Numbered from the stretch's first letter, positions 53,208-58,063 are shown. The stretch is 64,000 bases of DNA from Vampirovibrionales bacterium (GCA_044358835.1 JBIKNF010000002.1:9909-73908); one strand, 5' to 3'. Notes: a model not told the origin generated them from the sequence alone. Numbers and translations: made by a program.

Positions 53208-54116
53208 ATGTCTACGCTTCCCACCCCTAATGGCCTACCCTTTCAAGACGTCCTGCTTCGCTTACAACAGTTTTGGGCCGAACAAGGATGCGTGATTCAA
53301 CAGCCCTTTGATGTTGAAAAAGGCGCCAGCACCATGAATCCTGCCACCTTCCTACGAGTGCTGGGCCCAGAGCCGTGGAACTTAGCCAATGTGGATCCGT
53401 GCCGTCGCCCCACAGACGGTCGTTACGGGCAGAACCCCAACCGCTTGCAACACTACTTTCAATTTCAAGTGATTATGAAGCCGTCGCCGTCGAACATTCA
53501 AGAATTGTACTTGGAAAGCTTGAAAGTTCTGGGGATTGTGCCTGAAGAGCATGACGTGCGTTTTGTGGAAGACAACTGGGAATCGCCGACGCTTGGGGCG
53601 TGGGGTGTGGGCTGGGAAGTCTGGCTCGATGGCATGGAAATTACGCAGTTTACTTACTTTCAGCAGGCAGGCGGCATTGATGTGAAGCCCTGTGCGGTGG
53701 AAATCACTTACGGATGCGAGCGTATTGCGATGTATCTGCAAAATGTGGACAGCGTCTACGACCTGCGTTGGAACGAGCAATTGAGCTACGGCGACCTTTA
53801 CATGCAAAATGAAATTGAAAGTAGCACCTACAACTTTGAAGTCAGTAGCCGTGAGCGTTTGACGCAACGTTACGATCTCTACGCTGCGGAAGCCGTCGAT
53901 TGCCTTGAAGCCAAGCTGGTGATGCCTGCGTATGAGCATGTGTTGAAATGTTCGCACACCTTTAACTTGATGGACGCCCGTGGGATGTTGAGCCGTGACG
54001 AGCGAACGAATTACATTTTGCGCATTCGCCGTATGGCGGAAGGCGTGGCAAAGGCGTATGTTGAACAGCGAGAAGCCTTGGGTTACCCGTTGTTGAAGCG
54101 GGCATCGGTGGTTTAG
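53208..54116 (+). CDS. glyQ: Glycine--tRNA ligase alpha subunit (stand-alone, no glyS adjacent)
   Basis: [35 protein letters not shown]. 302 aa, colinear with E. coli GlyQ. Confidence 0.93.
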
Positions 54117-55525
54117 CGTTTGACCTTATTGCGGATCGCCGCCCCGATTTGGAAGAGCAAGTACCCTTGAATGAGGTGTTGCAGGATGTAGAGTGGATAA
54201 AACCACCACCAGTTTTCTTTGATGGCGATTAAAGCAATTGTATTTTGAATCGTGTCTATATCATTAAACACAAAGGGAATACTCGCACTCAAACTCACTA
54301 AAAAGCCTTCTCGAAATGAATGTAAAGCAGTCATCATGTAGAAGAGAGCAAACGCAAATAAATAGGCGGTAAAATAAAACAAAGGTAATTTGAAATTTAA
54401 CCCATAAGTGGAACTACACAAATAGATTTCATTAAAATTACAAAAGGGTGGCTGGTGTTCTACTCTCTGAAAATACTGTTGCCAAAAAAAGTAGTCGTTA
54501 CCAAGTTGCCTTTCCCCTTTTTCATCCGCTTTCGCTTTTAGGTTTGCGTAAATAGACGCCCACATTTTTAGTTTGTTTTCTGGAAGTTTCCTATTTTTAT
54601 GGATAGCTTGAAATTGACAGTGTATAGGAAAGCCTAAACATCCTAATGTAATTGTTAGTGGTGTTGGGTCTAAATAGCCAAAGTCAAACCCTTTCGCAAG
54701 TGTTCCTCCTTCAATGTTAATTTTCTCAAAGTCTACGTGTCTTAAAACAACATTTTCACCATGAAAATTACAATCCGTAAAATGTACTTTTACACCTGAA
54801 TCAGATTTAAGATTTCGTAGCTTAATGCAAGTCTTTTTTTCGTCCATTTCTATATTTTTGAAGGAAACTATACCTTTACTTTCGGGGGAACACTGTTCTA
54901 AATCAACGACAAGTGAACGTTTGTCTGATTCAAGATTAGGCGTCTGAATCTCGATTTTACCCTGTAGTTCTTTAGGTGATAATAAAAAAGCATCATGGAA
55001 AGTAGTCGTGGCAAACATCGCTCCCTTTTTGAAGGTGGTACTATCAAAAGCGGCGTATCCCTTGAATATGGTGTTGAAGAATAATGCTTCTTCGTTGAAA
55101 GTACAACGGATAAATTCGGCATTTTTCTCAAAAATCGCCCCTGCAAAATCTACTTGTTCAGTAAAAGTAATATCACTATATTGCCTCTTTGAGTAATCAG
55201 GGTAAAACGTTACAAATGACTTAAAAAAATGTGCATTCTTAGCTTTTAATATAAAGGGGCATCTAATAGTTTGGCGAATAAAGTTATGAAAATCAGGATC
55301 TTTAACGCTTGGTAATAATAAATCGTATTCTAGATATTCCTGTAATATCTCAGCCAAATTAAAATCTATTTCAATCTTACAGTCTGATATATCCAATACA
55401 CGATTCCCGCTAGTCCTTAATGCTTCCTCTATCAAAGGACGCAAATGTGATTTATCCTTAATGATAAGGCTGTCAGGGGCAGGGGCGTCCTCGGTGATAA
55501 TGACATTGTCGATATTTGAGTTCAC
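54113..55525 (-). CDS. Pentapeptide-repeat protein with a C-terminal polytopic membrane domain, on a low-GC islet
   Basis: 5-residue periodicity ([41 protein letters not shown]...). C-terminal TM helices [19 protein letters not shown] and [22 protein letters not shown] is about 37%. Confidence 0.55.
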
Positions 55526-55574
55526 AGGGTCGTCCTTCTTGCGTTGGGGGCTAGCCCTAGTTTAGCATGAAAAC

Positions 55575-55800
55575 GCTGTTCCCTCTCCTAATTTTAGGAG
55601 AGGGAACAGCGCAAGAACCCTCTCCCTTAGGGAGAGGGCAGGGGTGAGGGATTCGAGAGGCCCGTCTAGAGCGGGTGTCCCTCCTCCTAGCCTCCTCCCT
55701 AAGGGAGGAGGAACAAGACCCCCTCACCCCACCCCTCTCCCAGAGGGAGAGGGGACAGGACACGAGCAAAAACGCAAAAACCCCCTCCATAAGGAGAGGG
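55575..55800. repeat. Array of five GC-rich palindromic hairpins sharing a CCCTCTCC...GGAGAGGG core, with a nested long-range inverted repeat ggggtgaggg/ccctcacccc
   Basis: Hairpins at 55575-55610 (17 bp perfect stem), 55618-55638, 55691-55711, 55732-55754 and 55781-55799 (imperfect). The array lies between the mdh stop and the start of 54113..55525. Confidence 0.8.
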
Positions 55801-55823
55801 AATCGTGCAATTAATCCTAAAAC

Positions 55824-56759
55824 TTAAACAAACGCCTTGAGTTTGTCTACATTTTCAGCGACATCATTCACCGAAATGCTTAACGCCGCCTTCTCTTCAG
55901 CGGTGAGTTCTAGTTCAATAATCTGCAATAAACCGCCAGCACCAAGCTTACAAGGCACGCCCACATATAAACCATCCACGCCATATTCACCCTGCAAATA
56001 CGCCGCCGCTGGCAAAATGCGTTTCTTGTCTTTCACGATGCTTTCCACCATGTCAAGCACAGACGCCGCAGGGGCATAAAACGCCGAACCCGTCTTCAAA
56101 TGCTTGACGATTTCGGCGCCGCCATTTCTGGCACGCAACACGATTTCATCCAACTTGTCTTGGGCAATAAACTTGTCGAGCGGAATGCCTGCAATCGAGC
56201 TATAACGAACCAATGGCACCATGCTGTCTCCGTGACCGCCAAGCACGAAGGCTTGCACATCTTTCACCGAAACATCGGCGGCTTCGGCAATGAAGGTGCG
56301 GAAGCGAGACGTATCCAAGACGCCCGCCATCCCGATGACACGCTCTTTGGGGAAGCCTGTGGCTTCAAGAGCCACGTGGCACATGACATCCAGCGGATTC
56401 GACACTACAATCACAATCGAATCAGGTGCCACACGCTTAATTTCTTGGCAAACGGATCGCATAATTTTGGCGTTGGTTTCGAGCAAATCGTCGCGACTCA
56501 TACCGGGTTTACGAGCAATCCCTGCGGTAATAATCACCAGGTTTGCCCCTGTTACTTCGTCATAGCCGTTACTGCCGATGAGTTGCGTGTCATACCCATA
56601 AACAGGGCCACTTTGAGCGAGATCCAAGGCTTTACCTTGGGGAATGCCTTCAGCGACATCGACCAACACAACGGTTTTAGCCAGTTCTGCTTCAGCAATA
56701 CGTTGCGCTGTGGTGGCACCAACATTTCCCGCACCGATCACGGCAATTTTAGTAAACAT
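55824..56759 (-). CDS. mdh: Malate dehydrogenase (LDH-like family)
   Basis: [13 protein letters not shown] Rossmann motif, catalytic His in GGHGDSMVP, substrate Arg residues. The ATG at 56759 has a GAAGGGA RBS. The track's ORF starts earlier, at a TTG. Confidence 0.92.
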
Positions 56760-57019
56760 AATCCATCCCTTCAATATAAATAAAACTACGCTTTTATTAT
56801 ACGCTCAATCTAAAAACCCTGCAAGTCAACGCCAGCCTTTTTGATTAGAAAGGAGACAGAATCTTCTGAGGTCTTAAAAATAGGTTGGCGGGTTTAAACG
56901 TCCTGAGCTTTGGTGGGCATGCTCTGTATTAGAAATGTTAAAAAAAGCTTTATTCTTTTGTCGTCCTTTGCTACAATAAAAAAAGTCACCTCTATGAGTT
57001 ATGAGAAAGATTTTTTACA

Positions 57020-57616
57020 ATGTCTATTCCGATGTTTGAACAAGCCGTGTTAACTGAGCAAAATAGTACGGATGCCTCCAAAGACAATGCATCTGGCCTT
57101 GCCGTAAGCGATGCCCAAAGCCAAGACGAAGCGGATCCCTTTGATTCGTTGGCTCAAGAGCTAAAAGCCTTGCAATCAAACGCTAAAAACATCGCCTTAA
57201 TTGGAAGTCGAAACGTGCCGTTGCCTCATCAAAACTTGGTGGAAGGCTTGGCTTATAGCTTGGTGAAAGACGGCAATACCTTGATTACATCGGGGGGGGC
57301 TTCAGGCATTAACGCGGCGGCCATTCGTGGTGCGATGAAGGCGAACCCAAACTTTTTAAAAGTGATTTTGCCGCAAACGATTGGGCATCAGCCGAGCGAA
57401 GTGCAGGATGAATTGATCGGCATACCCAAAATTGAAGAGCATCCTGAATGGGACAAGATGAAGTTGTCTGATGCCTCTCGCTTGTGCAACCGTGCCATTG
57501 TCGATGCCTGCGATCAGCTCATCGTGTTTTTATTCCATGATTCGACAACGCTTCAAAAGGCGATTGATTATGCGGAAGAGACGCATAAGATCGTCACCCG
57601 CTTTTATCTCGATTGA
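57020..57616 (+). CDS. DprA/Smf-like (SLOG superfamily) single-domain protein
   Basis: IALIGSRNVP...LITSGGASGINAAAIRGAMKA...NRAIVDACDQLIVFL match the DprA Rossmann domain. It has no C-terminal WH domain. 198 aa. Confidence 0.6.
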   Translation: MSIPMFEQAVLTEQNSTDASKDNASGLAVSDAQSQDEADPFDSLAQELKALQSNAKNIALIGSRNVPLPHQNLVEGLAYSLVKDGNTLITSGGASGINAAAIRGAMKANPNFLKVILPQTIGHQPSEVQDELIGIPKIEEHPEWDKMKLSDASRLCNRAIVDACDQLIVFLFHDSTTLQKAIDYAEETHKIVTRFYLD

Positions 57617-57741: not shown

Positions 57742-57814
57742 GCTGGTGTAGCTCAATTGGCAGAGCAACGGTTTTGTAAACCGTAGGTTGTGGGTTCGAT
57801 TCCTATCACCAGCA
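57742..57814 (+). tRNA. tRNA-Thr (anticodon TGT)
   Basis: Cloverleaf folded by hand: acceptor GCTGGTG/CACCAGC, anticodon loop ttTGTaa, T-arm GTGGG-TTCGATT-CCTAT (as in E. coli thrU). No encoded CCA. Confidence 0.85.
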
Positions 57815-57850
57815 ATTTGTACTTTTAAAATAGACTTCTGTCTTCTAAAT

Positions 57851-57931
57851 GGGTAGGTGCTCGAGTGGTTAATGAGGGTGGTCTGTAAAACCACTGCTTC
57901 GGCTACGTTGGTTCGAATCCAACCCTGCCCA
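57851..57931 (+). tRNA. tRNA-Tyr (anticodon GTA), long variable arm
   Basis: Acceptor GGGTAGG/CCTGCCC (one G-U), anticodon loop ctGTAaa, 12 nt variable arm, T-arm GTTGG-TTCGAAT-CCAAC. Confidence 0.85.
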
Positions 57932-57976
57932 TTTTTCTTTTTCTTCTGCTTACACAGTGGTTTTTGATGGTTGTTT

Positions 57977-58048
57977 GCCCACATGGCGCAGTGGTAGCGC
58001 ACTCCCTTGGTAAGGGAGAGGCCACGAGTTCGAATCTCGTTGTGGGCA
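57977..58048 (+). tRNA. tRNA-Thr (anticodon GGT)
   Basis: Acceptor GCCCACA/TGTGGGC, D-stem GCGC/GCGC, anticodon loop ttGGTaa, T-arm ACGAG-TTCGAAT-CTCGT. Confidence 0.88.
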
Positions 58049-58063
58049 TATTTTTTATGTGAT

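Follow-up and report, generated by a model that had tools for sequence, protein, structure and literature searches.

The BoxC or PIT element was described in Escherichia coli in the early 1990s, and its earlier literature includes Bergler (1992) and Hoyne and Maher (2000). Holder et al. (2015, PMC4666352) define it, under the name TMECO, as an intrastrand triplex motif of the form CCCTCNCCC-N3-6-GGGNGAGGG-N3-GGGNGAGGG with at most one mismatched triplet. The same DNA has been described as HPG1/HPG2, a switch between a hairpin and a G-quadruplex (Kaplan et al. 2016, PMC5100583). Other short extragenic palindromes of bacteria belong to the REP/BIME class (repetitive extragenic palindromes and bacterial interspersed mosaic elements), for which the REPIN-RAYT system is the reference (Bertels and Rainey 2011, PMC3116915). 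Here we analyze an array of inverted repeats in a 64,000-nucleotide stretch of DNA from a Vampirovibrionales bacterium (GCA_044358835.1 JBIKNF010000002.1:9909-73908), referred to below as the window. The array occupies the 298-nt intergenic spacer between mdh and a pentapeptide-repeat gene. We put at about 70% the probability that it is a cluster of BoxC-type triplex repeats between two related plain hairpins, one of which, H5, is the terminator of mdh, and that the repeats have a protein partner, a DUF559 nuclease, which we infer from other genomes.

A first-pass annotation of this DNA had claimed five related hairpins, and all five inverted repeats were found within the spacer, at window 55574-55800. 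H1 (55574-55611) is a palindrome built on the core CCCTCTCC/GGAGAGGG; H2 (55618-55638), H3 (55691-55711) and H4 (55732-55754) have stems of 10 bp each; and H5 (55781-55800) continues into a T-run, the two together covering 55767-55800 on the minus strand. The stem of H1 is indeed perfect, as claimed, but it measures 18 bp rather than 17. The long-range pair GGGGTGAGGG / CCCTCACCCC is also real and belongs to a larger structure, a 33-nt inverted repeat, 88% complementary, between 55618-55650 and 55721-55753. This clustering of hairpins is far beyond chance. The core CCCTCTCC occurs seven times in the 64-kb window, always inside 55581-55800, compared with a mean of 0.92 after shuffling, and none of 100 shuffles reached seven; 4 of the window's 15 perfect hairpins with a stem of at least 8 bp sit in the array. 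When the 298-nt region was folded as RNA, a check that the annotation had proposed, it reached -167.2 kcal/mol, against -119.4 +/- 5.4 for dinucleotide shuffles (z = -8.9); folded as DNA, it gave z = -8.5 relative to the same kind of shuffles. The minimum-energy folds do not consist of five local hairpins. In them the two 33-nt arms pair with each other, implying that 55618-55753 is a single 136-nt near-palindrome with H3 at its center.

H2, H3 and H4 each have a third stem, which the first-pass annotation had missed. On the basis of their sequence pattern, we identify these three hairpins as units of the BoxC/PIT/TMECO family, two of them canonical and one a mirror-symmetric variant. Unit A (55618..55650, plus strand) reads CCCTCTCCC-TTA-GGGAGAGGG-CAG-GGGTGAGGG, a C-stem followed by purine stem 1 and purine stem 2; unit B (55721..55753, minus strand) reads CCCTCTCCC-TCT-GGGAGAGGG-GTG-GGGTGAGGG. 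Both fit the TMECO pattern exactly, and they form the two arms of the 33-nt inverted repeat. The variant unit, which contains H3 (55679..55711, minus strand), is CCTCCTCCC-TTA-GGGAGGAGG-CTA-GGAGGAGGG, in which the third stem mirrors the second. Unit A(+) and the variant(-) face inward across a 28-nt spacer (55651..55678) that holds a small hairpin, CCCG-TCTAGAG-CGGG, at 55661-55675. The repeat unit is therefore a three-stem element and not the simple GGGAGAGGG palindrome that had been proposed. Indeed, a custom three-stem finder returned exactly these three units from the window and none from 30 shuffled windows. Unit A has no Watson-Crick and no Hoogsteen mismatches, and Hoogsteen mismatches are likewise absent from all three units under the rules of an antiparallel purine-motif triplex (G*G-C, A*A-T, T*A-T). 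H1 and H5 lack a third stem. Exact, mismatch-tolerant and structure-based searches found no further copies elsewhere in the 64-kb window, and a permissive Rfam scan of 54500-57000 returned just chance-level miRNA and snoRNA matches, far below gathering scores.

The relation between the second and third stems is best described as a mirror. Scored in one register, the variant unit shows 0 mismatches under the mirror model and 4 under the direct model, a result to be read with the periodicity of the GGAGGAGG (GGAGG) variant, which alone cannot separate a mirror rule from a shifted direct repeat. We also selected hairpins in the fetched genome loci by a perfect pyrimidine/purine stem only, and then scored the next purine block. 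Once stems identical to their own mirror were set aside, 168 hairpins remained; the third stem was a perfect mirror in 47 of them and a perfect direct repeat in 2, part of this count consisting of shifted frames of a symmetric core. Distinct stem variants obey the rule: GGGGGAAGG is followed by GGATGGGGG, GGGAGAAGG by GGATGAGGG, and AGGGGAGGG by GGGTGGGGA. On this comparison we rejected the third stem as a plain direct repeat of the purine stem. Each unit has three stems, one of pyrimidines, its purine complement, and another purine stem that mirrors this complement, and a single-stranded unit can fold back twice, combining Watson-Crick pairs with reverse-Hoogsteen triads (G*G-C, A*A-T and T*A-T). 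The isolated strand of an E. coli oligonucleotide forms a stable triplex by circular dichroism (CD) and nuclear magnetic resonance (NMR) (PMC4666352), and we infer that triplexes may also form in vivo.

Units of this kind are widespread. The first-pass annotation had considered that the palindrome family might recur elsewhere, and it does so in many phyla and in most complete E. coli genomes; the accompanying proposal, an undescribed REP family specific to this lineage, has to be abandoned, the unit being a published motif spread across phyla. A scan for CCCTCTCCC-NNN-GGGAGAGGG, the hairpin by itself, in which each bacterial species was represented by one genome, gave at least 150 matches in at least 120 stretches. 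Hosts among the matches listed include Pseudomonas, Xanthomonas, Sphingomonas, Enterobacteriaceae, Acinetobacter, Planctomycetota, Chloroflexota, Acidobacteriota, Verrucomicrobiota, Omnitrophota, Myxococcota, Ignavibacteria, cyanobacteria and others. In nearly every listed match, (G)GGGTGAGGG stands two or three bases past the hairpin on one side, a block absent from the search pattern. A Hoogsteen-compatible third stem accompanies 120 of the 150 listed matches, compared with 264 of 24000 random positions in the same loci. The window element itself matches 4854 of 5426 complete E. coli genomes, with a median of 6 places in each, none of them annotated. The arrangement recurs as well: 49 of 58 neighboring unit pairs in other genomes are inverted doublets whose (+,-) gaps are mostly 15-47 nt, and the 28-nt gap between A(+) and the variant(-) falls inside this main mode.

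Some of the occurrences outside the window deserve separate mention. In another Vampirovibrionales genome (L013), a stretch of 8 kb contains two units. A contig binned as Gammaproteobacteria (L124:1542-1642) aligns with window 55618-55719, the doublet of unit A and the variant, at 81% identity over 102 nt, and matches almost the entire variant unit, including its flank AACAAGAC. This similarity points to a probable recent common origin of the two doublets and suggests that the doublet may have spread horizontally, or that the contig was mis-binned. Viral contigs from IMG/VR (L130-L249) contain at least 153 matches of the same hairpin, with a third stem in 112 of the matches listed; these repeats are often intergenic beside capsid, portal, tail-tube or Mu Gp36 genes (e.g., L134:7225-10485 and L170:2604-3914). 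We rejected a functional link between the repeats and viral structural genes, reading the pattern instead as shared ancestry of related prophage-like clusters or clusters resembling gene transfer agents (GTA); Holder et al. report no phage association of the motif (PMC4666352). In Pseudomonas (L007:244-744, L025:2796-3058 and L096:3813-5590), the triplex unit lies inside longer repeats, tandem or dispersed, that measure about 110-150 nt and 850-930 nt. These composite repeats are built around the triplex unit and share the flanking sequence ...gaccgaggtg...ctacgccgacctgaaa....

The locus is unstable among close relatives. The polymorphism check suggested in the first-pass annotation revealed three versions of the array among genomes that match the window at 91-99% nucleotide identity in the flanks; three contigs (L127, L128 and L129) span the syntenic mdh-pentapeptide-glyQ locus. 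In L127 and L128, H5 and H1 are kept, and a single plain hairpin, CCCCTCTCCC-TAA-GGGAGAGGG, stands where the window has everything between the outer ends of units A and B. The change amounts to an indel of 115 nt with the direct CCCTCTCCC repeats of units B and A at its boundaries, and slippage or recombination between repeats would produce exactly such an indel. H1 in the same contigs carries T>C on one arm and A>G on the other, leaving the 18-bp stem perfect. Both H1 and the plain hairpin of L127 look like remnants of a doublet collapsed by deletion between direct CCCTCTCCC repeats. In L129, H5 is kept, H1 is absent, and there is one unit with TTA as its second loop; its spacer aligns collinearly with the window spacer when the latter is read on the other strand, implying a possible inversion between the inverted arms or else an independent insertion.

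Assemblies also break at this site. The mdh protein of the window is on record, identical, in five other assemblies from freshwater metagenomes, and NCBI proteins sharing 90% identity or more with its GlyQ carry the name Vampirovibrionales bacterium. Five independent contigs with identical mdh (L001-L005) end inside the array, after H4 or H3. Another contig, L126, which approaches from the glyQ side, ends in H3 as judged by coordinates. The ends of L001-L005 and L126 fall at window 55687-55753, in short-read metagenomes from differing samples and assemblers. The practical lesson is that such arrays break short-read assemblies and generate spurious ORFs (open reading frames). An example is the 77-aa ORF at 55557..55790 (minus strand), which runs through the repeats and had been suspected to be an artefact; that suspicion was right, its translation being repeat-coded (PLSLWERGGVRG...PLPKGEG), without a Pfam match, and broken by the 115-nt indel in L127/L128.

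The gene on the downstream flank of the array is itself hypervariable. It encodes a pentapeptide-repeat or membrane protein (54113..55525, minus strand; 470 aa; Pfam Pentapeptide_3; low GC, ~38%), and its length is 470, 595 and 566 aa in the window, L127 and L129, respectively. The protein shares 36% identity with its L127 counterpart (L127:7122-8715) over most of its length, with an identical C-terminus. In blastn searches of 54308-55521 against the relatives we found no nucleotide similarity, whereas mdh, glyQ and the other flanks retain their 91-99% identity. With such a hypervariable gene next door, the array lies at one edge of a replaced or fast-evolving segment, in agreement with the variability that Holder et al. 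describe near TMECO sites. The predicted instability is directly visible here. The array is non-coding and dispensable at this site, close relatives carrying collapsed, rearranged or partly inverted forms.

A possible protein partner emerged from the genes around the repeats. Clustering of the ORFs within 2.5 kb of repeats across all fetched loci yielded one cross-phylum cluster directly beside the repeats, whose member in L017 matches Pfam DUF559, a Vsr-like PD-(D/E)xK nuclease domain. A DUF559 profile search of six-frame translations placed such genes within 450 nt of a repeat in L014, L017, L032, L038, L047, L162 and L184, and every two-sided case has the arrangement repeat(+)-gene-repeat(-), with the third stems pointing inward. 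In L017 (1777-4515, minus strand), from a metagenome-assembled genome (MAG) of an uncultured betaproteobacterium, a repeat-DUF559-repeat of ~540 nt lies in frame inside the ORF of methionyl-tRNA synthetase (MetRS). With a repeat on either side, DUF559 there separates the anticodon-binding domain from the tRNA-binding domain at the C-terminus, and the whole unit looks like an insertion into a coding gene.

We also approached the association from the opposite side, as a reverse test. Homologues were drawn from metagenome contigs by protein patterns only ([IV]ELDGGQH and KFRRQH), and the best 80 of 579 confirmed matches were examined. A three-stem unit lay within 300 nt of 63 of these best 80, and on both sides of 35; among the 17 homologues without a unit, some flanks are shortened by contig ends. 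Within 250 nt of the gene there were 2.0 units per kb; farther out in these loci, at 250-2000 nt, the density was 0.08 per kb. Typically, the (+) unit ends 2-100 nt before the match and the (-) unit overlaps its last 8-9 nt, the C-terminus of the ORF (...SPSP, ...PHP) being encoded by the right-hand repeat. We resolved 32 two-sided units, which range in length from 386 to 618 nt, with a median of 432 nt. Within any one of them both repeats, left and right, belong to a single stem variant, and the mirror relation between second and third stem holds in every case. The genes framed in this way are free-standing ORFs of ~105-117 aa. The DUF559 profile matches PDB 3hrl (E = 7e-35) and 3r3p (E = 3e-4), the latter a homing endonuclease from a mobile intron; one published survey of PD-(D/E)xK nucleases places this endonuclease in a common group with Vsr and DUF559.

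The same association can be traced in E. coli. The fabI (envM) region is the place where BoxC was first described. Table 1 of Kaplan et al. lists one motif between fabI and "yjcD" (PMC5100583); in the RefSeq record the gene is ycjD, annotated as "DUF559 domain-containing protein YcjD" (L250 = NC_000913.3 1349500-1353500). In K-12, a repeat lies 168 nt past the 3' end of ycjD, and a decayed repeat overlaps the ycjD stop codon. The unit beside ycjD belongs to the type, "A mm", that is most frequent in this strain. We also observed a duplicated 3' fragment of a DUF559 gene between ycjD and BoxC in this strain. Of 5426 complete E. coli genomes, 3378 carry ycjD. When chromosomes were sampled at even intervals along the ranking, those with ycjD had 15-32 further repeat matches (median 21, n=37) and those without it 2-20 (median 6.5, n=22), roughly a threefold difference.

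These data suggest a model in which BoxC repeats are the cis-elements of a small selfish system that spans phyla and has so far gone unrecognized. Its core, of ~430 nt, would be repeat(+)-YcjD-like DUF559 (Vsr-fold) gene-repeat(-), with the nuclease between two inward-facing repeats as the protein partner; gene-less doublets, window 55618-55753 included, would be non-autonomous derivatives, by analogy with REPIN and RAYT, that fold back and recombine with one another and in this way persist and rearrange. We regard this wider model as an even proposition. Within it, the family is probably maintained together with a DUF559 nuclease, and the nuclease presumably acts on the repeats.

Several results weigh against the model or against parts of our interpretation of the window. 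The profile search found no DUF559 gene in the 64-kb window or in the related loci, so that for this genome the partner is a putative one, and the window holds just one repeat cluster. No target-site duplication was seen around the 32 gene-containing units, and similar DUF559 genes are mostly syntenic and single-copy, as RAYTs are; transposition is accordingly a conjecture. We looked for mobility in the form of near-identical DUF559 genes in unrelated contexts and rejected this line of evidence: most pairs are syntenic, and a few pairs at 80-85% identity have unrelated, short flanks. The stem variant of the repeats is weakly reflected in protein similarity, the observed value being attained in 48 of 2000 permutations. 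In E. coli, the presence of ycjD follows phylogroup: A, B1 and C have the gene, and eefRABCD takes its place in the others (PMC12817139), with independent eef/ycjD replacements in ST69 and ST182. The contrast in repeat number is therefore confounded by phylogroup and rests on few evolutionary events. The DUF559 protein VsrA of Caulobacter has been proposed as a mismatch-repair nuclease. As for the triplex, in vivo dimethyl sulfate (DMS) footprinting detected no stable structure of this kind, and PIT elements had neither promoter nor terminator activity in E. coli (footprinting reported, and activity summarized, in PMC4666352). Holder et al. add that remnants of transposases or integrases were never found near these motifs (PMC4666352). 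We found no literature linking DUF559 or ycjD to the repeats, in a search that left subscription journals mostly uncovered.

One element of the array does have the properties of a transcriptional signal. mdh (55824..56759, minus strand; 311 aa from ATG; Pfam Ldh_1_N and Ldh_1_C) forms the upstream flank, and H5 lies 24 nt past its stop codon, reading CCCTCTCC-TTAT-GGAGGGGG followed by TTTTTGCGTTTTTG, the 8-bp stem including one G-T pair. A terminator consensus scan matched H5 at 55800-55781 with the tail TTTTTGCGTT, and on the coding strand H5 is followed by TTTTTGCGTTTTT. This is the sole strong terminator-like site, its stem and T-run being kept in L127, L128 and L129, and H5 is therefore the candidate, and likely the actual, intrinsic terminator of mdh. 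The first-pass annotation had suggested testing whether mdh transcripts end at H1; H1 does not have this role and lies at the far end of the array, and it is H5 that adjoins mdh and carries the T-run. H5 resembles a standard intrinsic terminator in its GC-rich 8-bp stem followed by a T-run, in its position just past the mdh stop and in its conservation in relatives; it differs in that the stem carries the CCCTCTCC / GGAG(A/G)GGG core of the repeats, and it may accordingly derive from a collapsed repeat doublet, like the plain hairpin of L127.

We considered whether the array as a whole might be such a device, a series of RNA hairpins that terminates mdh transcription and insulates the pentapeptide-repeat gene. 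The very stable fold of the transcribed strand (z = -8.9) agrees with this possibility, as do the T-run of H5 and the TTTTC that follows H1 on the minus strand, the H1 stem having been kept perfect in L127 by changes on both arms. However, units A, B and the variant have no T-run; relatives lose or rearrange the units and conserve H5 and the gene flanks; the conserved third stem has no role in termination; and the inactivity of PIT elements as terminators in E. coli points the same way. We therefore consider a transcriptional function of the whole array unlikely. The view that this is a repetitive extragenic palindrome cluster rather than a set of redundant terminators, already favored in the first-pass annotation, was borne out, the three units representing a repeat family.

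Still less probable, in our estimate, is a switch between hairpin and G-quadruplex that regulates the neighboring gene, as envisaged for HPG1/HPG2, with GGG-AGA-GGG-CA-GGGG-TGA-GGG as the quadruplex-forming alternative to the C-stem hairpin. Units A and B do contain the canonical four-tract motif, the array lies upstream of the pentapeptide-repeat gene, and CD studies back a hairpin/quadruplex equilibrium for the E. coli motif (PMC5100583). But NMR of the E. coli oligonucleotide gave a triplex, not a quadruplex (PMC4666352), and the stem pairs GGGGGAAGG / GGATGGGGG and GGGAGGAGG / GGAGGAGGG keep the mirror rule at the price of weaker G-tracts, so that a triplex or three-stem constraint fits better. 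Moreover, the array varies among close relatives, whereas the sequence from H1 to the start of the gene is conserved.

Very improbable, finally, is the view taken in the first-pass annotation, of a lineage-specific REP/BIME family mobilized by a RAYT transposase or of a remnant of a conventional miniature inverted-repeat transposable element (MITE): short extragenic palindromes are indeed clustered here, 33-nt terminal inverted repeats enclose a 136-nt block, and assemblies break as they do at multi-copy repeats, but the near-identical motif across phyla, in place of many lineage-specific copies, largely refutes it, there is no second copy in 64 kb, the 5' GT(A/G)G REP head adjoins none of the five hairpins, the repeat-framed gene elsewhere is DUF559 and not a Y1 transposase (no RAYT partner was encountered, no search having been aimed at RAYTs), and target-site duplications did not appear, those direct CCCTCTCCC repeats that border the indel being part of the repeat itself and establishing none.

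Taken by itself, the array is a further instance of a known repeat family, and the locus is not new biology. What extends present knowledge is the distribution of the family, which, with freshwater Vampirovibrionales and the phyla of our scan, extends far beyond the 262 proteobacterial genomes in which TMECO was reported, together with the framing of DUF559 genes, which may explain the origin of BoxC; origin and function have been open for some thirty years. The DUF559 link makes the question testable in E. coli K-12, with one gene (ycjD) and 23 repeats. Elsewhere in the window, the only gathering-level Rfam matches were three tRNAs, tRNA-Thr(TGT), tRNA-Tyr(GTA) and tRNA-Thr(GGT), clustered at 57742-58049, 1 kb past mdh; a DprA-like gene (57020-57616) is adjacent.

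How, then, do the array and its proposed partner compare with described systems? The closest is BoxC/PIT/TMECO itself, with which the window shares the three-stem pattern, the stem sequences, the intergenic site, the inverted doublets, the combination of variable loops with conserved stems, and the tie to locally variable genome regions. It differs in its host, an uncultured freshwater Vampirovibrionales bacterium, TMECO having been reported in proteobacteria and in triplex-rich cyanobacteria, and in its composition, a triple cluster that includes a GGAGG-type variant and is accompanied by two plain hairpins with the same core. HPG1/HPG2 share the purine half GGGAGAGGG-NN(N)-GGGGTGAGGG after a complementary C-rich arm and the frequent pairing of units on opposite strands. 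The DNA is identical and the structural model another; the window variant and the other stem variants favor the mirror, or triplex, rule.

On the protein side, the repeat-framed proteins have the invariant acidic, histidine and arginine positions of I-Bth0305I (PDB 3r3p) and of the DUF559 structure 3hrl. Unlike I-Bth0305I, they are not domains within a group I intron; they are ORFs between inverted repeats.

The REPIN-RAYT system offers the nearest parallel in organization. In both systems short extragenic palindromes form inverted doublets, and a single-copy, mostly vertically inherited gene of nuclease type is framed by the repeats, with gene-less doublets dispersed in the genome. In contrast to REPs, which have two stems, BoxC-type repeats have three, and they lack the GTAG head; the framed gene encodes a DUF559 (Vsr-like PD-(D/E)xK) nuclease rather than an HUH Y1 transposase; and the BoxC-type sequence is common across phyla, whereas REPs are lineage-specific. 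Protein-driven mobilization would be, on the BoxC side, an argument from this analogy. If the model is correct, BoxC and DUF559 would constitute a second REPIN-RAYT-like system, one that uses another nuclease fold and a three-stem DNA structure.

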